Source of the DNA: a virus
Length of the DNA stretch: 64,000 bases
Virus record (IMG/VR): IMGVR_UViG_3300047444_000577
Coordinates: 1-64,000 of that record
Direction: 5' to 3' (one strand)
Made by a program: the position numbers and the translations under genes. A model generated the notes under the pieces. It saw only the letters and a list, made by a program, of their open reading frames with translations, ran no database searches and was not told the DNA's origin. Positions 9,774 to 63,736 of this stretch are shown here, one piece after another (position 1 is the first letter of the stretch; the number at the start of each line of letters is the position of its first letter).

Positions 9774-10208
9774 TTACTCCGGCGCGTAGAAGGTGCCGAT
9801 GGCCAGAGCGGGAGGGTTCAGGAGGTAGTCCTTGGCCCGGTCGAAGAACTGCGGGTCGTCGCGAGCATGGCCGAGCAGGGTGTTGCACGGTCGGCAGAGC
9901 AGCCCGCGCACGATCAGGGTCTTGTGGTCATGGTCGACCGACAGTTTCCTGGTCTTCCCCGTTGCCCGCCGACAGAGGGGGCAACGGCCGTCCTGGTGGG
10001 CGTAGATCCGGTCGTAGTCCCCGTCCCCGAGCCCGTAGACCCTCTGGGATCGTTTCTCGTGAGCGGCCTTCTTGCGCCGGTCTCTCTCCTCGCGCCAGTG
10101 GGTGGCGCATCGGGGTCCGGGGTTGGGGGCGGGCCTGCGCTGCCGGGCAGGTGGTGGGAAGCCTCCCCACTCGGCAGCGCAGTCCTTGCAGACCTTTGGC
10201 TCCGTCAC
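9774..10208 (-). CDS. Recombination endonuclease VII family nuclease
   Basis: QDGRCPLC...LSVDHDH...VRGLLCRPCNTLLG. Confidence 0.85.
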   Translation of the reverse strand: MTEPKVCKDCAAEWGGFPPPARQRRPAPNPGPRCATHWREERDRRKKAAHEKRSQRVYGLGDGDYDRIYAHQDGRCPLCRRATGKTRKLSVDHDHKTLIVRGLLCRPCNTLLGHARDDPQFFDRAKDYLLNPPALAIGTFYAPE

Positions 10209-17079: not shown

Positions 17080-19029
17080 TCAGGCCGCGACCAGGTCGAC
17101 CACGTCACAGGCCCCGGCGACACACGCGAGTTCCTGGCTGCCGGTGGTCTGGTCGGTCACCTCGTAGTAGGACAGGTCCGACCACTCCACCCGTCCGGAC
17201 GACTCCACCAGCGCCTCGTACAACTGCTGCGTGCACTCCTCGTAGGGGGCCTGCACGTAGGTGTGGTCGGAGTAGGGCAGGAAGGAGACACCGGAGATCT
17301 CATCCAGGTGCTCCCACACCCACGCCCCCACTTCCACCCACTCCTCCGGGCGCACCGAGATGGTCACCGACGGCTTGTGCTCGCACCAGAACCGCTGATA
17401 GGTCAGCCAGGTCTCCAGGTGCTCGATCGCCGAGAGGTCGTCGCGCACCACGGCGTTGTCGGAGGCGCGCTGCGGGAAGGCGAACACCCACGCGGAAGCG
17501 TTGTAGGCGTCCTCCTCGTGGGGGATCTCCGCGTCGATGAGCACGGAGGAGATCGGGTCCTTCTTGTCCACGCGCACGCGGCGGACGTAGAACCGCGCGT
17601 GCTTCGGGTGCAGGCCGGACTCACAGTCCACCAACTGGCTGACGGTGCCGGACGGCTTAACGCAGGTGATGGCGTCGCTCGCCGGGATACCGAGCCGCTT
17701 GGCCTCGACCGCATTGGCCTGGCGGGCCACCAGTCGGAGGTCGACCAGGTAGAGCGCGGTGAGGCCACCGTTCCTGCCGTTGATGCGGTGATTACCGTAC
17801 ACCCCGGTCAGACTCACCCCGAGCAGCCGCTCCTCCTCCGCGTTCTTGCGGAACTCCTCGCGCAGGTAGGGGTAGTCGGTCAGGGTCGACTGCCAGGTAC
17901 CGAGGACGGTGGCGAGCCGGACCTTGCGCTCCAGGTCAGGGATGGTGTCCTCCGGCCGGACCACAACCTCGGACAGGTTGCAGAAGGAGAACGGCTTGAG
18001 AATGATCTCCGAGCACGGGTTGGTCCCGTAGTCGACGTCCGGGCTGCGGTGCCCGTACAGGGCTGCCTGCCTCTGGGCTGCGCCACGGTGGAAGATGCCC
18101 CGCTCACCGCTGCCGGAGGCGATGATGTTGTCCCACTCCTTGTTGAAGGTGTCGGCGTGCATGCCGTCGGTGTAGACGGCGGAGTTGTTTGCCAGGGCAC
18201 GGTACGGGTGCTCCTCCCACCACTCCCCTGACTTTGCCTGCGCCATCTCCTGGTCGTCCAGGTCGGACAGGGAGATCATCGCCGACCGACGGACGCCGCC
18301 GACGACGACCACGGAGGCGATCTTGCATGCCAGGTCGTGGGCCTCGATGGGCCGGAACTTGCGACCCTTGGCGCGGTGGAACAGGTCGACGGTGAACTGG
18401 AACAGGTCGTCGAGCGGAGCGGGCCCGGAGGCACGGCCTCCGAAAGTATGAAGTCGTGCTCCGGCCGGACGCACCTTGGTCAGGTCCCATCCGGGGATGA
18501 ACCCCTCCCACAGCCAGTGGAGCAGGTCGCGGAACGCTAGGGCCCAGCCCTCCTTGCTGTCCTGAACCACGATGCGGAGCGGCCTGTCAGCCGGGATGAG
18601 CAAATCCGGCACTGCTGGCAGTTGGTCGATGTACTGCTTCTCGACGCTGTAACCGACCCCGGTGCCGTTCATGAGGATGTACAGCAGCTCGTCGAAGGCC
18701 TTGGCGTCCTGCAGGGGCAAGTACGAGCAGTTGAACCCTGCGATGTTGGAGCGCTCCAGCGCCTCGCCTGCGGTCATCAGCGCGCGCATGGAGGGCATGA
18801 TCTCGTGGTTCAGGATGGCCCGGCGGACCTCGTGCACAAGACCGGCGTCGGCGATGTAGTTGTGCTCGATGAACAACTGGTTGGCCATGAAGGCCAGGTA
18901 TCGGTCGACCGTCTCCGTCCAGGTCTCCCGCCGTCCCTTGTCCGCGTCCCAGCGGGCGTAGCGGGACTTGGCGATGAAGGAGCGGAAGGGGTCGGCGATG
19001 TCACCGGAGGCGGTCAGCAGGTCAGTCAC
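17080..19029 (-). CDS. nrdJ: Class II (B12-dependent) ribonucleotide reductase
   Basis: GTG at 19029. PSMRAL, FNCSY, GGVRRSA, TNPCSEI, TCVKPSGT and C-terminal CVAGAC; no small subunit nearby. Confidence 0.9.
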   Translation of the reverse strand: MTDLLTASGDIADPFRSFIAKSRYARWDADKGRRETWTETVDRYLAFMANQLFIEHNYIADAGLVHEVRRAILNHEIMPSMRALMTAGEALERSNIAGFNCSYLPLQDAKAFDELLYILMNGTGVGYSVEKQYIDQLPAVPDLLIPADRPLRIVVQDSKEGWALAFRDLLHWLWEGFIPGWDLTKVRPAGARLHTFGGRASGPAPLDDLFQFTVDLFHRAKGRKFRPIEAHDLACKIASVVVVGGVRRSAMISLSDLDDQEMAQAKSGEWWEEHPYRALANNSAVYTDGMHADTFNKEWDNIIASGSGERGIFHRGAAQRQAALYGHRSPDVDYGTNPCSEIILKPFSFCNLSEVVVRPEDTIPDLERKVRLATVLGTWQSTLTDYPYLREEFRKNAEEERLLGVSLTGVYGNHRINGRNGGLTALYLVDLRLVARQANAVEAKRLGIPASDAITCVKPSGTVSQLVDCESGLHPKHARFYVRRVRVDKKDPISSVLIDAEIPHEEDAYNASAWVFAFPQRASDNAVVRDDLSAIEHLETWLTYQRFWCEHKPSVTISVRPEEWVEVGAWVWEHLDEISGVSFLPYSDHTYVQAPYEECTQQLYEALVESSGRVEWSDLSYYEVTDQTTGSQELACVAGACDVVDLVAA

Positions 19030-19072
19030 CTGTTGTGTCCATTCACTAGCGTGGTTGTTGGGGCTCAGGTGT

Positions 19073-19561
19073 TCAGGAGTCGCCACGGATGAGCATGTGC
19101 GGGTTGTAGTTGCTCCGCCCGTTCGCTCCGCCCTGCGCGGTCTGCTTGGTGGGTGTGGATGCAGCCTGTCCGGGGCCGCCGGACGGGACGCCCACGGCGC
19201 TCTGGTGGAAGCGGTCGTTGAAGCCGCACTCCTGGCAGCGTGGCGTCGACTTAGGGTGCTCCGGGGAGCGGAAGTAATCCCCGGATCCACAGTCAGGGCA
19301 CTGCCCGGACTGCTTGAGCACCTTCGCCTTCTTCGGGACGTGGTGCGGATCCCTGAGCAGGTCGCCGATGTGCTTCTGCTGCCCGTCGTCCTGGACCGGC
19401 TGGTACTGCTGCTGTGGCACTGTCTGCTGGTGCTGTGCCGGGGCGGGGTGGTAGGGCTGAGGCGTAGCCCACCACGGTCCGCTGGCCTGCTGCTGCGGGG
19501 CAGCGGGGGCCGGGGCGACCGGTGCCGCTCCGCCCAGTGCCTTAGCCCAGAAGTTGCTCAC
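19073..19561 (-). CDS. Hypothetical protein with zinc ribbon
   Basis: GTG at 19561; CPDCGS...CQECG; Gln/Pro-rich N-terminus. Confidence 0.7.
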   Translation of the reverse strand: MSNFWAKALGGAAPVAPAPAAPQQQASGPWWATPQPYHPAPAQHQQTVPQQQYQPVQDDGQQKHIGDLLRDPHHVPKKAKVLKQSGQCPDCGSGDYFRSPEHPKSTPRCQECGFNDRFHQSAVGVPSGGPGQAASTPTKQTAQGGANGRSNYNPHMLIRGDS

Positions 19562-19988
19562 CGATTTGCACTCCGTCCGTGTACGAGATGAGACCCATGT
19601 CGAGAAGGTTCGCGAGCACCGCGTAGACAGCGCTCCGAACAACGCGGGAATGGTGATGCTGCAGCCCTAGGGCCGTTTCCTCATCCACCTGATTGCCTGA
19701 GTTAACCAGCATAGCGCTGGCAGTAATGCCGGAAACCAATGGAACGAGGATCTCCAGGAGACCGGACATCGGTTCCAGATTTTGGAGCCTTTGATGGCTT
19801 GCGACGTGCTCCATCTCGGCGACGTCCGCACTGTCCGGGATCAGCCCCATCAGGGGAAGCATCTCCGAGACCGAGGGGCAGGGAACGATGTCCCATAGCA
19901 GCCGCTTGACCAGCATCTGCGGGGAGTACAGGACGACCTGCGGCTCCGCAGTCTCCTCGTTCTTCTTCTTGCGCCTGAATATGCTCAC
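19542..19988 (-). CDS. Hypothetical protein (148 aa)
   Basis: GTGA overlap with the polA stop. Confidence 0.65.
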   Translation of the reverse strand: MSIFRRKKKNEETAEPQVVLYSPQMLVKRLLWDIVPCPSVSEMLPLMGLIPDSADVAEMEHVASHQRLQNLEPMSGLLEILVPLVSGITASAMLVNSGNQVDEETALGLQHHHSRVVRSAVYAVLANLLDMGLISYTDGVQIGEQLLG

Positions 19989-21967
19989 TTAGCCTCACTC
20001 CAGCGGTTCACGATCTTGACGTCGGACGAAAGCGGAACCCGGAGGAGTTTCTGTATGTCCGCGCCGAGCATGGCTTCCTTGACGAGAGATGCGCATTCCT
20101 CTGCGCGGCTTTCGGGGGCGAGTACGACCAATTCGTCGTGGACCGACAGAATCAGGCGCATATCCTCCGGCAGCAGGTTGTTCAGCCGGATCATCGCCAG
20201 TTTGATGAGATCGGCTGCCGATCCCTGGATCAGACTGTTGACTGCCTGGCGCTCCGCTCCCATGCGCAGCCCGTTGCTGGACGACAGGATCATCGGCAGG
20301 CGGCGCTTGCGTCCGAGCAGCGTGCGGAGGTAAGGAGGGCGACGGGACCGGCAGACCCGGATGACGTCGTCCTTGAACCGGTAGATCTCGGGGAACTGCT
20401 TCTGGTGGATCTCCAGGAAGCGCTTGGCTTCCTTGACGGTGATCCCTGCCATGGAGGCGACCTTGTCCGGTCCCGCTCCGTAGACCACGGCGAAGTTGAT
20501 GCCCTTGGCGACCTGGCGCAGGTTGATGGCCTCGCGGTCGCCTGCCTTCACCCGGGCCATGAACTTGACCGGGTCCTCGCCGATCAGCGCTGCGGCGGTG
20601 GCCGAGTGGGGGTCGACACCCTTCATGAACCCGTCGTAGAGAGCACCACGGCCAATGAAGTGCGCGAGCACCACCAGCTCGATCTGCCCGTAGTCAGCGA
20701 CGACCAGCTTGAAGCCGGACGGTGCAACGAAGAGTCCTCGGATCCTCTTACCGAGGTCGGTGTCTGGTCGGGGGATGTTCTGGAGGTTGGGTTCCCTGCA
20801 CGAGAAACGCCCGGTGACGGTCCCGTACTGGACGAAGTCGGCGTGGATGCGTCCGTCGAAGATCCTGCGAGGCTTGTCCGGGTCTCCCTCGACGCCGAGG
20901 TAGGCCAGCGGGTATCCGAGCAGCTTGCTGACTTCCGCGTAGCCGGACATCGCCTTGACGACTGCGTTGTTGGGGTGTGCTTCCAGCGAGTCGGAGTCGG
21001 TGGAGTAGTCCGAGTAGGTCAGCTCCTTCCCGGCCTCCCGCTTCTTCTTTCCGCCGTCGGTCAACTTGAAGGGCTTGAGCCCCTGCCCGCCCTCGGACTT
21101 GGGTGCGTACAGGACCTTCGCCTTCTGGGCGGGGGCGTTGATGTTGAAGCGCTGCCCTGCCGCGCGGTAGATGTCAGCCTCGACCTCGACCAGGCGCTCG
21201 GACATGTCGTCGACCAGCTCGTGCATGGCAGCCTCGTCGACCGGGGCTCCGGTGACACCCATGTCGAGAAGGACACCGAGGACGTCCATCTCCAGTTGCC
21301 GGACATGGGTCAGGCCCTGGTCCTGGATGCGTCGCTGGAACTGCTTCCACAGCAGCCAGGTGTACTTGGAGTCCATGTAGGCGTAGTGGGCGACCTTGGA
21401 GAAGGGGAACTTCTCCACGCCCACCTTGCCGACGTGCTCGTTGTCGTAGTCGACCTTGTAGTAGCGCTTGACGAGGGACTTGAGGTCCTTCTGCTTCATG
21501 TTCTCGTCGAGGAGCCACTGCAGGACGATCGTGTCGCTGTACTCCGGCGGGGCTATCTCGCCGAAATACTTTGCCGTGGAGATCAGGTCGAAGGTCGCGT
21601 TGTGCGCGATCTTGATCTTGTCCTCGGCGAAGAACAGCGGCTTGAGGATGGAGAACACCTCGCTGGGGAGCATCTGCTCCGGCGGCGCGTCGAAGACGGC
21701 GGGGATCTGCTCGAACTTCCTGGTGACCTTGTTCAGCTTGCGTGTGGCCTTGCTGATCAGCACGTCGCCGTTGGGGTGCCCGAAGGGGATGGCGTAGGCC
21801 ATGCCGTCGGTGGCCAGGGACAGCCAGTTGGCGACGTTCTGGGTGGGCACGTTGCGGTACTCGCCCATGGTCTCGATGTCGAACGAGAAGGCCGGGCGCT
21901 CCATGAAGCGCTCGACCACGGTATGAAGTCGATCGGGGGTCAGGATGACGGAGTCGCGGATGTTCAT
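19985..21967 (-). CDS. polA: DNA polymerase, family A, with 3'-5' exonuclease
   Basis: ATG at 21967. FDIET, HNATFD, YAYMD, TGRFSC..PNLQNIP, ADYGQIEL, RQVAKGINFAVVYG, VHDE. Confidence 0.95.
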   Translation of the reverse strand: MNIRDSVILTPDRLHTVVERFMERPAFSFDIETMGEYRNVPTQNVANWLSLATDGMAYAIPFGHPNGDVLISKATRKLNKVTRKFEQIPAVFDAPPEQMLPSEVFSILKPLFFAEDKIKIAHNATFDLISTAKYFGEIAPPEYSDTIVLQWLLDENMKQKDLKSLVKRYYKVDYDNEHVGKVGVEKFPFSKVAHYAYMDSKYTWLLWKQFQRRIQDQGLTHVRQLEMDVLGVLLDMGVTGAPVDEAAMHELVDDMSERLVEVEADIYRAAGQRFNINAPAQKAKVLYAPKSEGGQGLKPFKLTDGGKKKREAGKELTYSDYSTDSDSLEAHPNNAVVKAMSGYAEVSKLLGYPLAYLGVEGDPDKPRRIFDGRIHADFVQYGTVTGRFSCREPNLQNIPRPDTDLGKRIRGLFVAPSGFKLVVADYGQIELVVLAHFIGRGALYDGFMKGVDPHSATAAALIGEDPVKFMARVKAGDREAINLRQVAKGINFAVVYGAGPDKVASMAGITVKEAKRFLEIHQKQFPEIYRFKDDVIRVCRSRRPPYLRTLLGRKRRLPMILSSSNGLRMGAERQAVNSLIQGSAADLIKLAMIRLNNLLPEDMRLILSVHDELVVLAPESRAEECASLVKEAMLGADIQKLLRVPLSSDVKIVNRWSEAK

Positions 21968-22146
21968 CGGACGTCGTCCTCGCTCACGACGACGGAACTG
22001 CTCGTAGTCGTCCAGCCGGTGAGGTCGTCGCGGTCGCAGAAACCTCCCTCTATCCAGGACTCGGTGACGTCGAGCAGTTCGTCCGGGCTGTAGTAGTCGC
22101 CCTCGTAGGTCACTTCGAGCGTCATCGTGAGGATCTTCTTGCTCAC
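21964..22146 (-). CDS. Small acidic hypothetical protein (60 aa)
   Basis: GTG after AGGAGG; ATGA overlap with polA. Confidence 0.65.
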   Translation of the reverse strand: MSKKILTMTLEVTYEGDYYSPDELLDVTESWIEGGFCDRDDLTGWTTTSSSVVVSEDDVR

Positions 22147-22221
22147 GAGTACCTCCTGTGGTGGTTGGGGAAGCTGAGGGGGAGGCCCCGGCAGTTGCCC
22201 GGACCTCCCCCGAGGGGTTGA

Positions 22222-23031
22222 TCAGTCGTTCAGGATCTCGGCGGCGATGGCCTTGAGTTCCGCGCGGGTGTTGACCTGGACCGCGTTCTCGTCGTACGCC
22301 TTGGCCTCGAACTCCTCCAGGTCCTCGTCGGTCAGGGGGTCGGTGTCCCAGTCCCCCTCCAGGTCGCGCTCCTTGACCGGCCGGATGAAGTAGGTGGTCT
22401 TCTTGTTCTTGCGTTCCTTGCTGACCGAGAAGTAGAGGTCGTCCCGGTTGATCGGGGCCGTCTTCTTGTTCTTGGAGAAGTTCTTGAGGATGTCGGCGAT
22501 GGTCGGGCCGACCTTCCACATCTTCAACTCCGGTGACTCCGGGTCGGTGAAGTCGACGACGTTGAAGCACACCTGCTGGCTGGGCTTGTCCCCGGCGTCA
22601 TCGCACAGGGGGCACTTGCTCTCCAGGCAGGTCCAGGAGCGCTTGCCCTGGCGCTCGATCCAGTGCTGGAGGTAGACGAAGAACGGCTCGTCGTCGAGGA
22701 ACTTGACGATCACCTCGTCGTCGGTGACCTTGAAGTCCGTCGGGAAGGAGGAGGTGGCGGACTTGGTCTTCTCGTAGGAGCCCCAGCCCTTTCCGCCGAC
22801 CTTCGGAGCGGGTTCGTCGTCCTCGTCGTCGTCCTCGGAGGAGCGTCGCGACCGGCGGGAAGGCGCAGCGGCCTTCTCAGTATGAAGCGACTCGCGGCGC
22901 GAGCCCCGGCGGGAGCCGCGTGCCGGGCGCTCATCCTCCTCATCGTCCTCGGGGAGGTTGGTGTCCTCCGGCTCCGGACTGTAGGCCTCGGTGTCGCGGG
23001 TGGTGCGGCGGCGGGTGAGCGTGCGAGGCAT
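22222..23031 (-). CDS. Single-stranded DNA-binding protein (gp32-like)
   Basis: VKFLDD..F....HW...TC...CPLC core; position between helicases and polymerase. Confidence 0.65.
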   Translation of the reverse strand: MPRTLTRRRTTRDTEAYSPEPEDTNLPEDDEEDERPARGSRRGSRRESLHTEKAAAPSRRSRRSSEDDDEDDEPAPKVGGKGWGSYEKTKSATSSFPTDFKVTDDEVIVKFLDDEPFFVYLQHWIERQGKRSWTCLESKCPLCDDAGDKPSQQVCFNVVDFTDPESPELKMWKVGPTIADILKNFSKNKKTAPINRDDLYFSVSKERKNKKTTYFIRPVKERDLEGDWDTDPLTDEDLEEFEAKAYDENAVQVNTRAELKAIAAEILND

Positions 23032-48723: not shown

Positions 48724-49566
48724 TTAGAAACTAACGTCTTGCGTTCCCGTACTGGTAGCCAGGGCGAACTCGAACCCTTCGTGGGCCAGGGTCATCTGCT
48801 GGACGATGATCGCGTTGGCTCCGGCGTCGAGGTCGGACCAGGCTATTGCGGTCGGCCACGCGTTCCAGACGCGGAACGAGGCCTTGACCGGCGGGTTCGG
48901 AACGGTGACCGGGAAATCCAGGACGTTGATGGTGACCATCTGCCGGAACTCCGCACCGGGCTTGCCAGTTCCCGTTCCCTGGATGACGGTGAACAACTGC
49001 CGCATCCAGTCCATCATCTGCGTGTCGCCGATCGCCATGCCCTTGGACAGGGTGATCGGAGCGAAGTCGGACTGACCCATTCTGTTACCCCTCCGATTCC
49101 TCGGAGTGGGCCGATCATTTCTGTCGGCCTCTTACGCTCTCGCGCAAGATCGGAACTATATCTTGATCCCGGAGGGATCTCCCGTACATAGTCTCTGAAC
49201 CTTCCCCATTTGACAGGGGCTCGGCTGCTGATTTTCCCTACCCTGATCTTTTCGAACCATCACGCCTAGGCTTTCGCCTTACGTTGTGGTGACCAGGTCT
49301 AACAGGACGTTCCAGCAATTCTCGGGATTATCCTGCGCAACTTACGCTGCGAGGGCCCAATCGCTCATAGGCATCTTCTGCGTGGTCGTATTCATACCGC
49401 CTTCGCGGTATGGAATGACCTCGGTCGTGACGTTGAGGCCGGACACGGACATGAAGCCCATGCGGGCGAAGCCCTTGATGTCCGGGTGCTGGATCTGCAC
49501 CTGGAACTTGAAGTTGCGGAGGGGGTCCGTGGCGATGTGCCCCACGGACGGCGTGACCTTGGCCAT
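48724..49566 (-). CDS. Tail tube protein (T4 gp19-like), spliced: join(49369..49566, 48724..49077), 183 aa
   Basis: Exon 1 DPLRNFKF...GF..VSGL...YREGGMNTTTQKMP joins in frame to exon 2 GQSDFAPITLSKG...NAWP..DLDA...LAHEG. Confidence 0.9.
49078..49368 (-). ncRNA. Group I intron (291 nt, ORF-less) in tail tube gene
   Basis: 5' exon ends in U (CCU|); intron ends in G. P AAUUGCUGGAA, Q AAUCAGCAG, R GUUCAGAGACUA, S AAGAUAUAGUUCC. P1 GCCU/GGGC; P10 GAUU/GGUC. Confidence 0.93.
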
Positions 49567-55986: not shown

Positions 55987-56367
55987 TCAGTGCCAGATGT
56001 ATCCGAGGTCGTCCAGGTGGTCGTACAGCGGCTTCGGGGCGCGGTAGCGGATGCCCTCCTCGAAGTCGTAGTGCTGGCCGTGGCCGAAGGTCATTTGCTC
56101 GATGGTGGAGTTGACGCGGAACTCGCGCAGCGGCACCTCGACGTCGACCGTGTCGGAGACCTCGATCGCGGATGGGGCCGGAGGCGGGGTCATGTCGCGG
56201 GGAAGGACGTCGTGGACGGTGTCGTCACGCTCAGCCGCAGCCGCCTCGTTCATGAGGGAGATCTCGTTCTCGCGCCGCTTCAGTTCCTCGGCGTTCTCCT
56301 TGGCCAGCATGGCCTTGTTGCGGCCGGTGAGGTCACCAGGGCGAGCGACATTTCGTGCAGTAGGCAT
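55987..56367 (-). CDS. Hypothetical virion-module protein (126 aa)
   Basis: GGAG RBS; follows the capsid gene. Confidence 0.7.
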   Translation of the reverse strand: MPTARNVARPGDLTGRNKAMLAKENAEELKRRENEISLMNEAAAAERDDTVHDVLPRDMTPPPAPSAIEVSDTVDVEVPLREFRVNSTIEQMTFGHGQHYDFEEGIRYRAPKPLYDHLDDLGYIWH

Positions 56368-56422
56368 TCAGTTCTCCGGATTCGGAACTCGTAGCAGTGA
56401 ATCAGTACAAGGCTAACGAGAA

Positions 56423-56454
56423 AGGGGAGCCGCACGTTAAAGTGCGGCTCCCCT
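56423..56454 (-). terminator. Terminator downstream of major capsid gene
   Basis: AGGGGAGCCGCAC...GTGCGGCTCCCCT stem followed by T-rich sequence. Confidence 0.7.
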
Positions 56455-56510
56455 ATCGGGTCTTGATGCTGTCACCAACTCAGCAGGCGGGGCCTTGCGG
56501 CGGCGCTAAC

Positions 56511-58343
56511 TCAGTTGGTCTCGGCGATCAGGACGGCCTGGTCGGTGATGAGGCCAAGGCCCCAGATCGCGTACCAGGCGAGTGCGTGCTCTCGCATTCT
56601 GTTACCCCTCCGGTCTCCCGGAGTGGGCTGGTCATTTCTGCCAGCCTCTGCATGTCTCCATGCAGATCCGAACTATATCTTCACCCGCGTGGGGTGACCC
56701 GTACATAGTCTGTGAACCTTCCCCAGCTAAAGGGCTCGGCTGCTGATTATCCCTACCCTCAGATTTTCAAGCGTTCACGCTCAGACTTTCGTCTCACGTT
56801 GTAGCTCTGAGGTCTAGCAGGACGTCCCAGCAATTCTCGGGTTGTTCACTGACAGATTGCTCTGTCAGGCGGCCAAAGTGAAACCGAAGTCGAGGATGCC
56901 GCCGTCGCGCAGTTCCACCGGGAGGGAGATCGCGTGCCCGAAGGCGTTGTCGCCCAGGAAGATGCTCTGGTAGACCGTCTTCCCCAGTGCGTTGGTGAAC
57001 TGCTTCACCTGCGTGGTCTCGATGAACACCACGTCGTTGAGGCGGCCGATCTCGCCGATCATGAACGAGCCCGGGGCCGCGTACTTGGTGACCTCGATCC
57101 ACTCGGGGTCATCGCGCAACTGCCGCGACTGGTGCGGGTGGACGAACGCCACGTACGTGTCCCCCAAGCGGGGGACGTTCTTGGTGCTCAGTGTCTCGGT
57201 GGCGTCCTTGGTGAGGGCCGCCGTGAAACTGAAGGTGCCGTCCAGCAGGTCAGTGCCGGTGGCGGCGGTGCCGTGCGAGTACTGCGCCATGACGCCGAAC
57301 GCGCTGGTCTGGGCGTACTTGTTGTAGCCCCAGATCTTGCTCGACGCCTGCAGGAGGGTGTCCCGCGCGGACTGGTCGAGGTAGAGCGCCATGTTTCGCG
57401 TTCTGTTACCCCTCCGGATTTCTCCGAAGTGGGCTGGTCATTTCTGCCAGCCTCTACAGGTTTCCCTGTAGACCCGAACATCTCTTGACCCTCTCGGGTC
57501 TCCCGTGCATGTTCTGTGAACCTTCCCCAGTTAAGGGGCTCGGCTGCTGATTGTCCCTACCCTCTTCTTCTCAAACCATCGCGCTCGGGCTTTCGCCCCA
57601 CGCTGTGGTGAAGAGGTCTAGCAGGATGTTCCAGCAATTCTCGGGATTTTCACTGAGAGGTTTCCCTCTCAGGCGGCCAAAGTGAGACCGAGCAGACGCG
57701 AGGCCGAGGCCATCACGTCGTCGAAGGACGCGTTGAGCAGGAGTTCGGAGACGGCGACCGCGTAGCCGTGCTCAGCCACCGTGATGGAGAACTGAGAGGC
57801 CGACAGGGCGTTGGTCTGCATCCGAACGCCTTCGACCAACTGGGAAGCGGCTCCCAAATTGTTGTACCTCATGAAGTTGATTTGGAGACCGGGCTGAACA
57901 CCCAACTCCGTCTTCTTCACGGCGAACTGCTCGACAATTCGCGATTGTTACCCGCTGGCTGCGGGGCCAAAGCATTTCTGTCTGGCTCTTGCACTTTTCC
58001 ATCGTGCAAGTTCGGACTATATTTTCATCTCCAGTACCGACCTACTGCCCATCTAAAGGCTGGAACTGTTGGAGATGCCTCGCGTGTAGTCTCTACGGAG
58101 TCCCAGATGTTGGGTTCCCTCGGTATTCCCCATTCGCCCATTTGGAGGGGTTCACCGATACAGCGTGGTTCTCACTGACCCATCACTGGATCAGGCGGCC
58201 CGAGACCGGAGGATCGGCATGCTCTGGAACAGGATCTCCTTGGACCAGATGGTCTGGATCGCCGCACCGAGCGTGCTGTTGGCACCCGAGTAGTTCGTCG
58301 GCGAGGCCGACAGGTTCGGGGTACCGGTGATTGCACTGGGCAT
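56511..58343 (-). CDS. Major capsid protein (N4-gp56-like), spliced: join(58205..58343, 57687..57934, 56883..57398, 56511..56594), 328 aa
   Basis: Exons of 139+248+516+84 nt join in frame: ...MPILR-F-EQFAVKKTELG...SRLLG|RNMALYLD...GILDFG|REHALAWYAIWG...ETN*. AAAAGGA RBS; follows the scaffold gene. Confidence 0.92.
56595..56882 (-). ncRNA. Group I intron 3 of major capsid gene (288 nt, ORF-less)
   Basis: Boundaries CGGU|...G|CGA. P AAUUGCUGGGA, Q AAUCAGCAG, R GUUCACAGACUA, S AAGAUAUAGUUCG; IGS GGCCG. Confidence 0.93.
57399..57686 (-). ncRNA. Group I intron 2 of major capsid gene (288 nt, ORF-less)
   Basis: Boundaries CGGU|...G|CGA. P AAUUGCUGGAA, Q AAUCAGCAG, R GUUCACAGAACA, S AAGAGAUGUUCG (compensatory P7). 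Confidence 0.93.
57935..58204 (-). ncRNA. Group I intron 1 of major capsid gene (270 nt, ORF-less, different core type)
   Basis: Boundaries CGGU|...G|UCGAG. P UAUCGGUGAA, Q AAUACCGAG, R CGUAGAGACUA, S AAAAUAUAGUCC; P10 CUCGG/UCGAG. Confidence 0.92.
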
Positions 58344-58375
58344 GTGTCAGTCCTTTTGTTGCGGGTACTCGTGGA

Positions 58376-59221
58376 TTACGAGTACAGTCCACGCTGGTTA
58401 CCGGCCGACTGGCCGATCCCCAACTGGCCCCGAATCTTGGCGTATTCCGACATCGGCATGTCCTTCAGGTCGCTGACGGAGTACGACTTGTGTCCCGGTT
58501 CAGAGTCCATTGGTCCAGTCGTGGCATATCCCGTAGGGCTGACTCCACGCATCTGCGAGCGCTGCTGAATCGCAGCCTGCTGAACAGACTCAAGAATAGC
58601 CTGAGTCTTTCCCTTGAGGGTATTCAGGCTTTCCTCGACCTGCTCCGGCGAATTGCCGGTCACGAGGTCGAGAAGTTCTGGGGCGATGTTGTCCTGCTCC
58701 TCGCCGACGCGGCGCTGGATGTAGGACTGCAGGGCGTTGAACTCCTGCTCCTTCGCGAAGAGGGCGCGCTCGTTCTCGCGATCCGCCTCGAACTGGGCGA
58801 AGCGGCTGTTCCACTCCGCCTCCTTGGCCGCCAGGAGGTCCTTGGCGGACATCTCCTGCTCGGCCTGAGTGCGGGCGGCCTCCTGGGCCTGGCGCTGCCG
58901 CTCTGCCTCGGCCTCCTGGGCCTCCTCCCGCGCCTTGCGCTGGGCCTCGATCTCGTCCAGGAACTTCTTGTTCTGGGTCTCGACCGTGTCCAGGCGCTTG
59001 TACAACTTGTCCTTCTCCTCCTGCCGCGCCCGCTCGATGTCCGCAGCAGTGAAGCGCGGCTCAGCGGGGGCCGGAGTCGGCGGGGGGACGACCGGGATGG
59101 TGATGACCGGCTCGCCGGGCTCAGGTGCGCCGCCAGCGATGTTGTAGATCGGCGAGCCGTTCTTGCGGTGGCCCAGCACGGTCATGGCGGGCAGGGAAAT
59201 GCCCGAGGTATGAAGCGGCAT
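58376..59221 (-). CDS. Capsid scaffolding protein
   Basis: ATG at 59221 after AGGAG; long coiled coil; C-terminal MPMSEYAKIR..LG; lies between portal and capsid genes. Confidence 0.8.
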   Translation of the reverse strand: MPLHTSGISLPAMTVLGHRKNGSPIYNIAGGAPEPGEPVITIPVVPPPTPAPAEPRFTAADIERARQEEKDKLYKRLDTVETQNKKFLDEIEAQRKAREEAQEAEAERQRQAQEAARTQAEQEMSAKDLLAAKEAEWNSRFAQFEADRENERALFAKEQEFNALQSYIQRRVGEEQDNIAPELLDLVTGNSPEQVEESLNTLKGKTQAILESVQQAAIQQRSQMRGVSPTGYATTGPMDSEPGHKSYSVSDLKDMPMSEYAKIRGQLGIGQSAGNQRGLYS

Positions 59222-59234
59222 TCGCTTTCGACTC

Positions 59235-60953
59235 CTAGTCGGTATCTGTGTCCGGATTTCGGCGGAGTCCCGCTCTGGGGCCATACGCCTGTGTCACGAT
59301 CTCGTTGATCATTTTCTGAACCTCGGGTGCTGTAATGGACCCGAGATCGAGTCCACCGGGGAGCGACACCGGATTCGGACCCCCAGGCGCATTGATCGGG
59401 TTACCGGCCGCATCCGTCTGAGGTGCAGGCGCATCCACCCCATCCGGTGGCATTCCCGTCAACGAGAGAATAGCCGAGTCGAACTGCGCCTTTAGCATGC
59501 GCAATGCGGCCTGCTGCTTGGCGTCCTCGATCTGCTCCTCGAATATCTCCCTGACCTTCTCGTCGGGGAACTCCTCGCCCAGTGTGTGCAGCGCCCCGCG
59601 CATCGACTCCAGACCCAGGGACATCTTCACCTGGATCTCGTTCAGCGCGATGAGAACGTCGACAGGGAGAGGTGCTGGCCATTCGCACTCGGTGAAGTAG
59701 GCCATGGGATCCCGGACGTCCACCATCGTTGGCTGGTCGCTCTTCATGATTCCCTCGGTGGAGGGATCGTAGAGGCGCGTCTCAGGCTCGAAGGTGAACA
59801 GGGTCTTGAGGATCAAGTTGTTGATCTTCTGCAAGCCGACGGAATACTGCAGACGCTTCTGGTCGTATTTGGCCATCATGGGCCGGAACTGGATTGCCAG
59901 GGCGACACCCGACGTGTTGCTCACGGCCTGCATCTGACCAAGTGCGGTCTCTGGAACACCCGTGATCTCGTGCATGGAACGCTTGAGGAGTTCCAGGTAC
60001 GCGAGAGGACCATTCAGGTCCATCCCGGACTCCAGATTGAACACCTGGGCGTCCTTCGGGAGTCCTCCCCACACCTTGCGTGGGCCGCGCTCCAGGTTGC
60101 TCGCCTTCGCGCCCGTGATGATCGTTACGGGGGCCGCACCGTAGTTGATGATGTCGCTGATATCGGTGGCCTTCTCGTTGTACTCACGATTCAGGCTGAT
60201 GATGTCGGCGATGTCGGAAAGGCCCCAAGGAGATCCGGAGACCTGGGTGTTCGCGATGTGGACGACGGGGATGACACCGAGCGGGTTGGGCCGGGAGTCG
60301 ATCAGCTCGTCATCCAGGTACTCCTCGATGACGTCGTCGGTCAGCACCTCGACGTAGGTGCGCACACTTCGCGTCCCGTCCTCGCCGGTCGACCAGAAGC
60401 GGTATTTCAGTTTGAAGCGGATCAGCCGGTCCCGCGAATGGGGGTGCCACTCGGGGAAGCAAAAGGCTGAGTTGAGCGGAAGGATCTTGACCTGCCCCGG
60501 CTGCTTCTGTCCCAGACTGTCTACGTATTCGGGGGCGTAGGCGACCTTCACAAAGGAATCGCCACTGACACCTCCCTGCTGGCCCATCTCCCACAGGAGC
60601 TGGTGCTTGGAGTTGTCGACCTCCCAGGCCCGCTTGAGCAGGGCTGGGATGATGTGCTCGTACTCCTTGACGCTCTTGAAGTGAACGCCTCGGCCGAAAG
60701 TGAAGTTGAGGATGTAGTCGGCGAACGCCTTCACGTAGTTGAACGTGAGTTGCGGCTCGCCAGCCTCGCGCCGGAACGCCCAGTGGTGACCCAAGTAATA
60801 TGCGAAGTTCTGGGCATAGCGGTTAAGGCGTGGGCCGTGTACCTCAAACTCTTCGTCCGCCAACTCAACCAGCCCGAGGGGCGAGATCTGGACCGTGAGG
60901 TCCGACTGCCCGGCCCGCTGGCTAGGGCTGGCGAAGGAGATGGCTTGACTCAT
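59235..60953 (-). CDS. Portal protein (SPP1 gp6-like)
   Basis: NYVKAFAD, GVSGD, NPLGVIPVVHI.N, WGLSDI, NTSGVAL. Confidence 0.9.
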   Translation of the reverse strand: MSQAISFASPSQRAGQSDLTVQISPLGLVELADEEFEVHGPRLNRYAQNFAYYLGHHWAFRREAGEPQLTFNYVKAFADYILNFTFGRGVHFKSVKEYEHIIPALLKRAWEVDNSKHQLLWEMGQQGGVSGDSFVKVAYAPEYVDSLGQKQPGQVKILPLNSAFCFPEWHPHSRDRLIRFKLKYRFWSTGEDGTRSVRTYVEVLTDDVIEEYLDDELIDSRPNPLGVIPVVHIANTQVSGSPWGLSDIADIISLNREYNEKATDISDIINYGAAPVTIITGAKASNLERGPRKVWGGLPKDAQVFNLESGMDLNGPLAYLELLKRSMHEITGVPETALGQMQAVSNTSGVALAIQFRPMMAKYDQKRLQYSVGLQKINNLILKTLFTFEPETRLYDPSTEGIMKSDQPTMVDVRDPMAYFTECEWPAPLPVDVLIALNEIQVKMSLGLESMRGALHTLGEEFPDEKVREIFEEQIEDAKQQAALRMLKAQFDSAILSLTGMPPDGVDAPAPQTDAAGNPINAPGGPNPVSLPGGLDLGSITAPEVQKMINEIVTQAYGPRAGLRRNPDTDTD

Positions 60954-62170: not shown

Positions 62171-63736
62171 TTAGCGGAAGGGAGATCGAGAGACCTCGAC
62201 CTCGGGCAGGGTGAAGTCCTTGGTGAGCACGCATGCCAGCGCGAGGGAGTCGGCGTAGTCGTCGTGGGCGTCGGCCGCCTTAGGTGCTTCGGCCAGGACG
62301 TAGGGGCCCTCGAATTTCTTCTCCAGGTCTTCCATCTGCTGCCTGAACCTTTTGTACGTTTTGAGGCGTCGCGTGTAGGCGTGGGCGGGCCAGGAGAGCA
62401 GCCCTCGGTCCATCAGTTCCATCAGGTGCTTCCAGCGCTTGGACTGCTCGGGTCGCTGGGAGGACAGGGGCACGATGTGTATGTCCGGCATCAGAACCTG
62501 CAGGCGCGAAAGGACGACGTCGCCCACACCGCCCTCGTCGACTCCGACGGCGTAGACGGAGTAGGAGCGCACGAACTCCACGATTCGGAAGTACTGCTCC
62601 TCCCAGGCCATGCCGCCCAGGTCCATCCAGTTCAGCACCCGGTGCTCGTAGTACCCGTACTCGTCGGGCCGGTCCCACCTCACCCACACCGCCGTGACGA
62701 TGGTGGAGTCCTGCTTGCGGGCGGGGTCGATGCCGATGACGACGTGGCTCTTGTGGTAACTCTTCACCGCCTGCATGGACGTGTCGCCGAGTTCGTCCAG
62801 GCGCTCCGAGGTGGTGAACATGCCCTTGTCCAGGAGCCACATGAGCCTGTAGGACAGTTTGAACTCGTCGCTGTCCTCGCCGATGCGCAGAAGTTCCTTG
62901 TTGACGAACTTCTTGTAGTTGGCGTTCCACTTGGAGACCTCGCGCCAGTCGGCGTCGAAGTGGTTCTGGCGGGCCCCGCGCCGGGTGGCAGTGCGCTTGT
63001 TGATCTGGATCTGGTTGTAGAACACGCCCTTCTCGTAAGTGGGCGTGCCGGTGAAGCACATCGTGGCGTTGGTCGAGGCACCCATCGGGCCGATCGACTT
63101 GTTCACCATCTTCTCGTCCGCGCCCTGGCACTCGTCGATCAAGATCAAGTGGTAGGTGCGTCCTTCGATGGTGGCGCGGGGGTGGCACGTCTGCTTGCGC
63201 ACCAGCGAGCCGGAGCGCTTGAGGGACAGCGAGCGGCCCTTGCCCTGGATCGAGTCGTCGATCTCGGGGTCGGCCAGGACTGCCAGGGCGTGCTCACTGG
63301 TCAGTCGGGCCACGATTCGCCCGTAGAGGTTGTCGGCCTGCTCCTCGACCGGCGCGAAGGCTCCGACCCAGAGGCCCTCCTTGTACTTGCCCAGGAGGTC
63401 AGGGAACAGCTTCGCGAGCCGAGGGAACATGATCATGCAGGCGGCGACAACGTTGGCCACCGTCTCGGACTTACCGGACTGGCGGGAGAACAGGGCAGTG
63501 AGAGTGGCCCCGTCGTTGATGATCAGGGACTCGATCAGGCGGGCTGCAAAGGGGCGCTGGTAGCCGTACAGCGGGTGGCCAGAGACCTCATCGACCACGA
63601 GGAGCATCTTGGCCACGAGTTGGTCGACAAAGGCCTGGCTTGTCTCATCGAGGATGACCTCGGTGTCCAGGCGCGCTTGGTGCTCTTCGTCGGTCTCATC
63701 GCTGATGACGTCGTAGTCGTAGTCTTCTGCCTCCAT
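62171..63736 (-). CDS. Terminase large subunit
   Basis: LYGYQ, SRQSGKS, ILIDECQ, TGTP, GIDPA..QDST, HDDYADS. Confidence 0.93.
   Translation of the reverse strand: MEAEDYDYDVISDETDEEHQARLDTEVILDETSQAFVDQLVAKMLLVVDEVSGHPLYGYQRPFAARLIESLIINDGATLTALFSRQSGKSETVANVVAACMIMFPRLAKLFPDLLGKYKEGLWVGAFAPVEEQADNLYGRIVARLTSEHALAVLADPEIDDSIQGKGRSLSLKRSGSLVRKQTCHPRATIEGRTYHLILIDECQGADEKMVNKSIGPMGASTNATMCFTGTPTYEKGVFYNQIQINKRTATRRGARQNHFDADWREVSKWNANYKKFVNKELLRIGEDSDEFKLSYRLMWLLDKGMFTTSERLDELGDTSMQAVKSYHKSHVVIGIDPARKQDSTIVTAVWVRWDRPDEYGYYEHRVLNWMDLGGMAWEEQYFRIVEFVRSYSVYAVGVDEGGVGDVVLSRLQVLMPDIHIVPLSSQRPEQSKRWKHLMELMDRGLLSWPAHAYTRRLKTYKRFRQQMEDLEKKFEGPYVLAEAPKAADAHDDYADSLALACVLTKDFTLPEVEVSRSPFR

Follow-up and report, generated by a model that had tools for sequence, protein, structure and literature searches.

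Predicted ORF-less group I introns interrupt the major capsid and tail-tube genes of an uncultured rhizosphere phage

The 98,440-bp genome of an uncultured phage with a contractile tail, recovered from rhizosphere samples, carries three predicted ORF-less group I introns in its only major capsid gene and a fourth in its tail-tube gene, an architecture that our analysis of the sequence confirmed. Taken together, the evidence makes it highly probable that these are self-splicing introns behaving as selfish mobile elements, and not a conserved regulatory device. Coordinates refer to the window, that is, the whole analysed stretch of 64,000 nucleotides (positions 1 to 64,000 of the IMG/VR record IMGVR_UViG_3300047444_000577). 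A sequence-only reading of the same DNA had described the capsid introns and had further suggested that splicing gates head and tail production; the structural part of that interpretation stood, whereas the functional part found no support.

The claim that no intact capsid ORF exists held up, the gene being split into four pieces on the minus strand (Table 1). Excision of the three intervening inserts yields 987 nt that encode 328 aa and a terminal stop, the frame being otherwise open, across junctions that read CGGT-TCGAG, CGGT-CGAAAC and CGGT-CGAGAG, exactly as had been proposed. The translation of exon 1 begins with MPSAITG and ends with MPILR, and an AAGGA ribosome-binding site lies 8 nt 5' of it, while a T-rich tail (5 T in 8 bases) follows the stem of the terminator-like hairpin beyond the capsid stop. 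When the exons were joined, the product aligned without gaps at all junctions to BRock gp147 and GiJojo gp71 of Streptomyces phages, the capsid gene being kin to those of the BRock group, and it formed a single HSP (q1-328) with 70 uninterrupted orthologues in IMG/VR at identities of up to 94%. Core-less mini-introns beside the full ones are absent from the gene, as these alignments show no additional insert in any exon. Its assignment as a capsid is in line with a PF13252 match of 28.8 bits (cut-off 23 bits), a match of the phrog_1357 major head protein profile to exon 3 (E 1.4e-29), and a portal gene close by, as would fit a portal-scaffold-capsid order. A separate intact gene that might supply the virion was sought and not found, since the 99%-complete genome holds one capsid copy. 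The capsid dN/dS was 0.09-0.15 overall and low in each exon, at about 0.04-0.09 for exon 2 against its orthologues, with dN = 0 and dS 0.23-0.58 for exon 4 against eight orthologues. A megablast search of 56300-58500 against 50,697 phage records returned no matches, so the phage has no close cultured relative among them.

Table 1. Positions in the window of the interrupted capsid and tail-tube genes, their predicted introns and other genes referred to in the text.
Feature	Coordinates	Strand	Description
Capsid exon 1	58205..58343	-	139 nt; M1-R46 and first base of the F47 codon
Intron 1	57935..58204	-	270 nt; ORF-less group I, family B core (Baka-like)
Capsid exon 2	57687..57934	-	248 nt; F47-G129
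Intron 2	57399..57686	-	288 nt; ORF-less group I, family A
Capsid exon 3	56883..57398	-	516 nt; R130-G301
Intron 3	56595..56882	-	288 nt; ORF-less group I, family A; intron 2 paralogue with the same guide
Capsid exon 4	56511..56594	-	84 nt; R302-N328 and TGA
Terminator-like hairpin (intrinsic type)	56423..56454	-	13 bp, 10 G-C; 3' of the capsid stop
Tail-tube exon 1	49369..49566	-	66 aa, ending in QKMP; PF06841 (T4 gp19) profile positions 1-45
Intron 4	49078..49368	-	291 nt; ORF-less group I, family A core, different guide
Tail-tube exon 2	48724..49077	-	117 aa and stop, beginning with GQSDF; PF06841 profile positions 47-134
Portal gene	59235-60953		
polA	19985-22570		Single ORF
Class II RNR gene	17080-19290		Single ORF
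Endonuclease_7 gene	9819-10055		92 bits

Each capsid insert bears the marks attributed to it by the earlier reading: it is preceded by an exon U, ends in G, forms P1 and P10 pairings, and reaches an in-frame stop (UGA in each case) only 4, 5 and 5 codons into introns 1, 2 and 3, respectively. The same P1, exon CGGU with guide GCCG, serves all three introns, and P10 pairs UCGAG with CUCGG in intron 1, CGAA with UUUG in intron 2 and CGAG with UUUG in intron 3. The covariance-model check that had been suggested for group I membership came out as predicted, with RF00028 matching all three inserts over the full model (positions 1-253) at 57988-58219 (38.5 bits, E = 9.4e-8), 57454-57694 (53.0 bits) and 56648-56890 (70.8 bits). 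Introns 2 and 3, which are mutually 82% identical, reach the 50-bit gathering score of this model; intron 1 does not, and its membership rests on approximately 70% identity to the spliced intron of phage Baka and on the covariation in alignment A2. Intron 1 is also 84-85% identical to the same-site introns of two related loci (L062 and L063). An intron-borne endonuclease had been ruled out by the earlier reading, in agreement with intron lengths of 270-291 nt and ORFs of at most about 40 aa, and the GC content of the introns lies below that of the exons. Two core families are present, intron 1 being Baka-like and introns 2, 3 and 4 being paralogues.

Covarying stems, likewise claimed before, were evident in both families. 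Compensatory changes were present at 33 of 72 pairs in family B (alignment A2, six sequences; 94.6% of cells paired) and at 27 of 80 pairs in family A (alignment A3, four sequences; 98.4% of cells paired), values that none of 500 shuffles equalled, and slid controls gave 2-10 pairs. The core helices P3-P9 are kept by compensatory changes, with the P7 pseudoknot strand read by eye only; P10 (helix 1) covaries with the 3' exon in family A; and the RNAalifold models contain no P7.1/P7.2 insert. The guide tracks the exon in all ten related introns (CGGU/GCCG, UGGU/GCCG, UCCU/GGGG, GCCU/GGGC and GGCGGU/GCCGCC). All four introns of the phage end in G, with a P10 of 4-5 bp and a short P1 of 4 bp that includes a G.U wobble. 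The structural reading of the capsid and tube introns as group I is strongly supported, by covariance-model matches, covariation, collinearity with intron-less orthologues and the homology of intron 1 to a spliced intron.

In the mechanism that we propose, each intron would fold into a group I ribozyme within the late transcript, and the four bases that close the exon (CGGU in the capsid gene, GCCU in the tube gene) would pair with the internal guide near the 5' end of the intron. The G.U wobble would mark the cut site, where free guanosine attacks, P10 would align the downstream exon by its first 4-5 bases, and ligation of the exons after the terminal G would generate the 987-nt ORF and thereby the 328-aa capsid protein. 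We infer that the introns do splice, and efficiently. The in-frame stops, located 4-8 codons into the introns at the P1/P2 border, may serve to halt ribosomes before they unfold the ribozyme.

The tail-tube gene, which has the sheath gene immediately 5' of it, follows the same plan with a single intron, and both of its exons score above the PF06841 cut-off. Intron 4 pairs exon GCCU with GGGC in P1 and GGUC with GAUU in P10, has an in-frame UAA after 8 codons, and matches RF00028 with 54.3 bits over model positions 1-253, which is above the gathering score. Its boundaries were set from our own reading of the sequence together with the P1 and P10 pairings, and 49368/49369 was chosen because only this position restores the gp19 frame and has a guide pairing. 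The P1 placement given by Rfam (start 49417) was rejected as a chance exon hairpin. An RF00028 scan of the entire 98,440-bp genome returned these four introns and no further one. The observation that structural genes, namely capsid and tube, are the ones targeted was borne out, with polA and the class II RNR gene each a single ORF. As a consequence of this architecture, gene callers will read a complete phage as one without a capsid gene and with a broken tube gene, when the true capsid product is a protein of 328 aa from four exons.

The guides suggest how such introns may come to occupy their sites. Introns 2 and 3 have guide modules that are 83% identical, and both lie at CGGU^CGA in one gene, while the guide module of intron 4 is common to the capsid-W310 introns of three related loci (L018, L097 and L163), all located at GCCU^GGU. 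From these sequences the introns appear to be mosaic, in that recombination has shuffled the P1-P2 targeting module separately from the catalytic core. Intron-less orthologues mostly do not have the required exon U or CGGU (at site 2, GGT occurs in 2 of 70), so that agreement of the exon wobble positions with the guide is confined to genes that carry an intron. More than 113 loci in IMG/VR have the AATCAGCAGCCGAGCC core of the family.

Site choice by guide-exon pairing is the most likely interpretation of these patterns: new sites would be picked either by integration of the reverse-splicing type or by recombination that survives where the guide fits, and relatives would pass introns to one another at a given site by ordinary homologous recombination during co-infection. 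On reverse splicing specifically as the route we are evenly divided. It needs reverse transcription, and according to a review (PMC3984707) direct evidence for it exists in no system; a search of the phage genome for an RVT_1 domain was negative. We tentatively propose, as a plausible but by no means favoured account, that ORF-less introns reach new sites by guide-directed integration, with late mRNA or a single-stranded target followed by recombination, and that the P1-P2 module is swapped between unrelated cores. If this is true, the capsid genes of the lineage would preserve, in nature, the traces of introns transposing under RNA guidance within protein-coding genes, a process so far supported circumstantially and only for rRNA genes.

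Homing at the DNA level, in which a nuclease acting in trans (the EndoVII-family protein of the phage itself or the nuclease of a co-infecting phage) cuts empty sites and repair copies the intron, is an unlikely though serious alternative. Phages provide documented cases in which free-standing nucleases drive the collaborative homing of ORF-less introns (PMC3984707), every capsid site falls within a conserved block, as is usual for homing sites, and the window does contain an Endonuclease_7 gene (Table 1). The multi-intron locus L157 of IMG/VR, whose four-intron gene resolves only to phrog_13692 (unknown function), includes an EndoVII ORF adjacent to the introns, one of which contains a NUMOD3 ORF. 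However, some 46 kb separate the Endonuclease_7 gene of the window from the capsid gene, and the two closest relatives without introns (G001 and G002) carry the Endonuclease_7 gene as well, which makes its product a likely resolvase, one that could in principle act as a homing nuclease in trans. Searches of the genome for HNH, HNH_3, GIY-YIG and LAGLIDADG_3 domains, and hence for a homing-endonuclease ORF of these kinds, were negative. Moreover, a nuclease alone does not account for same-guide paralogues at separate sites that have only the 7-nt guide target in common.

Occupancy among relatives was sporadic. None of eight complete or near-complete relatives (CheckV 86-100%) had a group I intron, and neither did two fragments (66% and 75% complete); among ten related records, nine were free of introns and the tenth (63% complete) had one. 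Two of the intron-free complete genomes have capsids 90-92% identical to that of the phage. Related capsid genes were uninterrupted in 148 of approximately 160 cases, with interrupted relatives numbering 5 of 80 and 1 of 80 in two comparisons, and those that were interrupted had one or two introns each at differing sites. Across the capsid family, seven distinct sites were found (aa 33/34, 38/39, 46/47, 52/53, 129/130, 301/302 and 309/310). Given these intron-free relatives, mostly uninterrupted capsid genes and differing sites, the introns appear to be dispensable and sporadic and to have moved recently, a pattern typical of selfish elements. They were probably acquired within the lineage; the nearest orthologue without introns, with about 85% DNA identity, is too distant to date the gain. 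Intron 1 is 85% identical to the L063 intron when the host genes are only 72% identical, which fits a mobile element, although this excess of intron similarity could reflect constraint on the ribozyme rather than transfer.

The same distribution speaks against the earlier claim of a gate, a checkpoint or a means of hiding from defences. In such a scheme, four ribozyme reactions would time head and tail synthesis, make it conditional on guanosine, Mg2+ or metabolic state, or delay the appearance of defence triggers. Such a gate would be consistent with the location of all four introns in the capsid and tube genes, which are late structural genes with high expression, and of none in DNA-metabolism genes, with the early in-frame stop kept in all four, and with the dependence of group I splicing on a guanosine cofactor and on the translation state (general knowledge; reviewed in PMC3984707). 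Yet a device of this kind is hard to reconcile with intron-free relatives that include complete genomes with nearly the same capsid, and with occupancy and sites that vary from one relative to another; in-frame stops are common to phage group I introns generally, and the spliced protein is unchanged and therefore still exposed to any protein-sensing defence. We consider a regulatory gate highly improbable, and the capsid and tube introns do not reveal a new regulatory principle so much as a known kind of selfish element. A side effect of the introns on timing is compatible with our data, which contain nothing in its favour.

The capsid gene might also be dead, with at least one intron no longer splicing and the contig derived from a satellite-dependent element or a defective phage, a reading to which we give very little credence. 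It would accommodate the low score of intron 1 relative to the Rfam threshold and the minimal P1 helices, and splicing in this phage is a prediction from sequence. Against it, purifying selection acts strongly on every exon and none contains a stop or a frameshift, every core helix is preserved (95-98% of cells paired), the gene is the sole capsid gene of a 99%-complete genome, and the intron-bearing allele was assembled identically in several rhizosphere runs.

Logan contigs from rhizosphere runs, 100% identical to the window, bridge every exon/intron border at a depth about that of the flanks, and at least five public runs contain 89% or more of the window stretch. In contigs from alleles without introns, stretches of 270, 288-289 and 292 (+4) nt are missing at the three capsid sites, 288-289 nt being the figure for the intron 3 site, and one metagenome contig omits exactly the span of intron 1. 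A joint between 56809 and 57629, which would delete exon 3, was set aside on account of its depth of 2.9, a side of 26 nt and 16 foreign letters, and is treated as an assembly or recombination oddity and not as evidence. Wrong stitching of intron-like repeats into the capsid gene, an idea to which the 82% identity of introns 2 and 3 and this single low-depth contig might lend themselves, has a negligible probability in view of the independent contigs across each border, the five runs, and the recurrence of the architecture, with same-site introns, in unrelated samples (L062, L063, L163 and L221).

Phage capsid and tube genes with several introns have already been published, for the crAss-like Zeta group and for Twort. 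In crAss-like phages of the Zeta and Delta groups, Yutin et al. (2021, PMC7886860) found the major capsid protein gene broken into five fragments, with domains of group I introns in three of the four separators, and left open adaptation versus an outbreak of mobile elements. The likeness is that of a phage major capsid gene broken by several group I introns; however, the crAss-like introns were recognised via endonuclease ORFs, in phages of Bacteroidota with recoded stop codons, whereas the window has ORF-less introns of 270-291 nt in an actinophage-like lineage that uses the standard code. According to PMC11878797, which cites Landthaler & Shub (1999), orf142 of Staphylococcus phage Twort, later recognised as the tail tube gene, contains three self-splicing group I introns and undergoes exon skipping, and splicing was demonstrated in vitro and in vivo. 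Twort therefore offers, as far as that account goes, a late structural gene with three small group I introns, comparable to the capsid gene here and matched in function by the interrupted tube gene of the window; it differs in the host phylum, in having introns in DNA-metabolism genes as well, and in the lack of any detected sequence relationship. By analogy, exon skipping is conceivable in the capsid gene of the window, given its common 5' splice-site sequences; loss of exon 3, with exon 2 joined to exon 4, would remove 172 aa in frame. In Bastillevirinae, which are Bacillus phages, a single gene can contain as many as three group I introns, and exon skipping has been observed (NAR 2025, PMC11878797), with introns averaging approximately 800 nt, mostly equipped with endonucleases, in genes for DNA polymerase, terminase and nucleotide metabolism, and not, unlike those of the window, in capsid or tail genes.

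Related introns at different sites of one gene, with sites that fit the internal guide, are also known from rDNA, where spread of group I introns by reverse splicing was proposed (Bhattacharya et al. 2005 and others, as summarised in PMC3984707). The evidence is circumstantial in both settings; as summarised there, the rDNA cases concern eukaryotic rRNA genes, whereas those of the window concern protein-coding phage mRNAs with no evident reverse transcriptase. Published surveys place phage introns mostly in DNA-metabolism genes, and the present phage provides a clean case of multiple ORF-less introns in structural genes of an actinophage-like lineage. The lineage forms a tractable comparative set, with alleles that carry or lack introns in the same soil samples, same-guide paralogues at different sites and mosaic introns, and one that can be used to test group I transposition by reverse splicing, a long-standing and unproven idea.

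A close counterpart with demonstrated splicing is found in Cluster J mycobacteriophages, for which Pope et al. (2013, PMC3706429) established intron splicing in Baka and LittleE by RT-PCR and N-terminal sequencing. The intron of Baka measures 265 nt, has no ORF, is preceded by an exon U and has a terminal G (PMC3706429). The intron in the minor tail gene of Baka and Optimus is approximately 70% identical to intron 1 over nt 32-242 (211 nt), with a structure maintained by compensatory changes. Cluster J genes have one intron each, and the capsid intron of LittleE carries an endonuclease gene, in contrast to the window, where three introns of two core families, known from their sequence, are predicted in one capsid gene and a fourth in the tube gene, none of them with an ORF. 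A further similarity was seen in Bacillus phage SP-15 (KT624200), in whose annotation the major capsid CDS consists of two joined pieces on either side of an endonuclease ORF; that region is 77% identical to the core of intron 3 over 110 nt.

The head-gene block of this virus record (98,440 bp in full, CheckV 99% complete, with the window as its first 64 kb) includes a capsid region in which, as the sequence-only reading had claimed, no intact capsid ORF exists: only four open pieces were found, and excising the three inserts between them yielded 987 nt encoding 328 aa and a terminal stop, free of internal stops. Exon 3 was present as a single copy in a search of the whole genome, so no second capsid gene is able to supply the virion. 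With dN/dS values of 0.09-0.15 against eight orthologues, low for every exon, the capsid gene looks alive. GC content was ~0.62-0.67 in the capsid exons versus ~0.53-0.57 in introns 1-3 (56500-58300), a dip that can serve as an easy compositional marker of similar insertions where the phage genome is GC-rich.

Coordinates of the features of the phage and of two related loci, followed by the occupied capsid insertion sites
Feature	Position	Strand	Remarks
Terminase	62171-63736	minus	first in order in head-gene block
Portal	59235-60953	minus	SPP1_portal match
Scaffold-like ORF	between portal and capsid region	minus	302 aa
Capsid exon 1	58343-58205	minus	open piece
Intron 1	57935-58204	minus	270 nt
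Capsid exon 2	57934-57687	minus	open piece
Intron 2	57399-57686	minus	288 nt
Capsid exon 3	57398-56883	minus	open piece
Intron 3	56595-56882	minus	288 nt
Capsid exon 4	56594-56511	minus	open piece
Strong terminator-like hairpin	56454-56423	minus	3' of capsid stop
Tube exon 1 (...QKMP)	49566-49369	minus	T4 gp19 tail-tube profile positions 1-45
Intron 4 (tube)	49078-49368	minus	291 nt
Tube exon 2 (GQSDF...)	49077-48724	minus	T4 gp19 profile positions 47-134
Endonuclease VII-family gene	9774-10208	minus	domain 9819-10055, 92 bits
L097	3575-5290		capsid introns at aa 52/53 and 309/310
L163	1450-3185		capsid introns at aa 46/47 and 309/310
Capsid site	aa 33/34		L077
Capsid site	aa 38/39		L081
Capsid site	aa 46/47		this phage, L062, L063, L163, L221
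Capsid site	aa 52/53		L097
Capsid site	aa 129/130		this phage
Capsid site	aa 301/302		this phage
Capsid site	aa 309/310		L018, L097, L163

Judged by sequence comparison, the intron boundaries in the capsid gene are exact. The spliced capsid aligned gap-free at all three junctions (MPILR/FEQFAV, SRLLG/RNMA and ILDFG/REHALAW) with the uninterrupted capsid proteins of the Streptomyces phages BRock and GiJojo, and of the 80 relatives that exon 3 retrieved from IMG/VR, 70 gave a single continuous tblastn match over residues 1-328 (identity up to 94%). Every capsid exon/intron border was bridged by 100%-identical contigs in four public rhizosphere metagenome runs, and diverged contigs (85-95%) from the same four runs skipped 270 nt (57935-58204) at the intron 1 site, 292 nt with 4 letters between at intron 2, and 288-289 nt at intron 3, which indicates that intron-less alleles coexist within the same samples. 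One low-depth contig of a public rhizosphere run (X1; 2.9x) fuses intron 3 position 56809 to the equivalent intron 2 position 57629, a joint that would delete exon 3 and may stem from recombination of the two paralogues or from misassembly. A capsid orthologue on a metagenome contig (L241:2106-3052; Ga0182038_10039647) shifts frame at residue 89/90; an intron there was rejected because nothing is inserted, leaving a frameshift or sequencing error.

That the inserts are group I introns is strongly supported, and we regard it as very probable. The Rfam group I model RF00028 matched introns 3, 2 and 1 over its whole length at 70.8, 53.0 and 38.5 bits, respectively; the intron 1 score has E = 9e-8 but falls short of the 50-bit gathering threshold. 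A fourth match (54.3 bits) lay in the tube gene at 49131-49417, and the scan of the 98,440-bp genome returned nothing beyond these four. The features first read from the sequence held throughout: a U ends the exon before each intron and a G ends the intron, a 4-bp P1 (5' exon end with guide) and a 4-5-bp P10 (3' exon with guide region) were located by script in each, translation running into introns 1, 2, 3 and 4 would meet an early in-frame stop after 4, 5, 5 and 8 codons, and an ORF of endonuclease size is absent from every insert. The P1 guide sits 5-10 nt inside the intron and P10 uses bases just 5' of it, with P1 pairs of CGGU/GCCG in the three capsid introns and GCCU/GGGC in the tube intron. 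In the tube gene, which has the sheath gene directly upstream, the boundary was set at 49369/49368, where the reading frame is recovered and the guide can pair; Rfam's P1 placement was rejected as a chance hairpin within the exon. We infer that these introns are spliced.

The cores form two families, A and B, with a between-family identity of only 45-54%. Family A was aligned from introns 2, 3 and 4 and the capsid intron (L018:2041-2337) of L018, an IMG/VR or metagenome locus, and family B from intron 1, introns of four further such loci (L062, L063, L077 and L081) and the Baka intron. By RNAalifold, whose figures are flattered by the use of one set of alignments both to derive and to score the structures, family A has 80 pairs, with compensatory double changes in 27 and 98.4% of cells paired, and family B 72 pairs, with double changes in 33 and 94.6% of cells paired. 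The proposed covarying stems were borne out, as the observed values were reached by 0 of 500 shuffles in either family, and sliding the partner by 1-3 columns left just 2-10 double-change pairs in both. The main helices of both families match those of the independent Rfam model, and the family A P10 helix covaries with the 3' exon. Over nt 32-242, intron 1 shares ~70% identity with the ORF-less minor-tail-gene intron of the Cluster J mycobacteriophages Baka and Optimus, whose removal from mRNA was demonstrated by RT-PCR (PMC3706429). Introns similar to the core of introns 2-4 occur in Vibrio ICP1, in Xanthomonas jumbo phages and in the capsid gene of Bacillus phage SP-15; the annotation of the SP-15 gene is a join on either side of an endonuclease ORF.

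Among ten related virus records searched with RF00028, nine had no intron, eight of these being 86-100% complete and the intron-free records including BRock and two complete genomes with capsids 90-92% identical to the present one; the tenth (63% complete) has one, located in its capsid gene. Interrupted related capsid genes were rare in IMG/VR and JGI/ENA metagenomes (6/160, one intron each), and the more distant L097 and L163 (capsid ~57% identical), found via the intron motif, carry two each; three, in this phage, is the highest count per gene found in the capsid lineage. Seven insertion sites are occupied across the capsid family, and conservation around the three used here is high (94th, 86th and 71st percentile among windows of 10 aa).

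Introns 2 and 3 have 5' modules (guide plus P2) that are 83% identical, both at CGGU^CGA, while the intron 4 module is common to the W310-site capsid introns of L018, L097 and L163, all at GCCU^GGU, with 69% identity to the L018 guide/P2 segment. For the P5 extension the pairing is different, with intron 3 closest to L018 (96%) and intron 2 to intron 4 (77%), a conflict that implies recombination between family-A intron copies. The GGCCGCCUGA-P2-UCAGUGA module is the same in introns 1, 2 and 3, although the intron 1 core is unrelated, and the site-46/47 intron of L163 is a hybrid of an intron-1-type guide/P2 module and a family-A core. No HNH, HNH_3, GIY-YIG or LAGLIDADG_3 domain and no reverse transcriptase was found in the phage genome. 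Intron-less orthologues have GGT in 2/70 at site 2 and CGCT in 32/70 at site 1; the wobble base before the sites is usually not U without an intron, so guide and exon agree only at occupied sites. Shared guide modules at shared targets, the mosaicism, the nuclease negatives and the wobble pattern fit a choice of sites by guide pairing, through reverse-splicing-type integration or through recombinants surviving only where the guide fits; circumstantial evidence of like kind exists for guide-directed spread of rDNA introns (PMC3984707). Homing in trans by an unrecognised or foreign nuclease is a serious rival. The genome's sole candidate trans-acting nuclease is the free-standing Endonuclease VII-family gene, probably encoding a junction resolvase, which is shared with the two closest relatives lacking introns but absent from three more distant ones.

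The further proposal that four ribozyme reactions gate head and tail production, as a checkpoint or to evade host defences, fared poorly and is very unlikely: such a role predicts conserved introns, whereas the nearest relatives lack them, their occurrence is sporadic and their sites vary; the spliced protein is unchanged, and defences that sense protein would detect it in the normal way. The CGGU/GCCG pairing common to all three capsid introns makes exon skipping conceivable as a possible cost of carrying them; loss of exon 3 in this way would keep the frame, and skipping has been demonstrated in Twort orf142 and in polymerase genes of Bastillevirinae (PMC11878797).

Phage capsid and tail genes with group I introns are a known kind, to which this capsid gene adds another case; published examples are the LittleE capsid gene and the Baka tail gene (PMC3706429). 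Twort orf142, with three introns, has since been recognised as a tail-tube gene (PMC11878797), and the crAss-like Zeta-group capsid gene lies in five fragments with group I intron domains in three of four separators (PMC7886860). What sets this case apart is that one actinophage-like capsid gene holds three ORF-less introns, drawn from two core families and with a common targeting module, and that the tube gene holds a retargeted paralogue; its main value is as comparative material for work on reverse splicing and as a lesson for annotation. In another uncultured phage (L157:1996-5135, minus; IMG/VR UViG_3300041809_000076), four RF00028 matches of 46-67 bits within ~3.2 kb mark introns that split a phrog_13692 gene of unknown function into at least three exons, with a NUMOD3/HTH ORF inside one intron and an Endonuclease VII ORF just downstream (L157:1160-1732).
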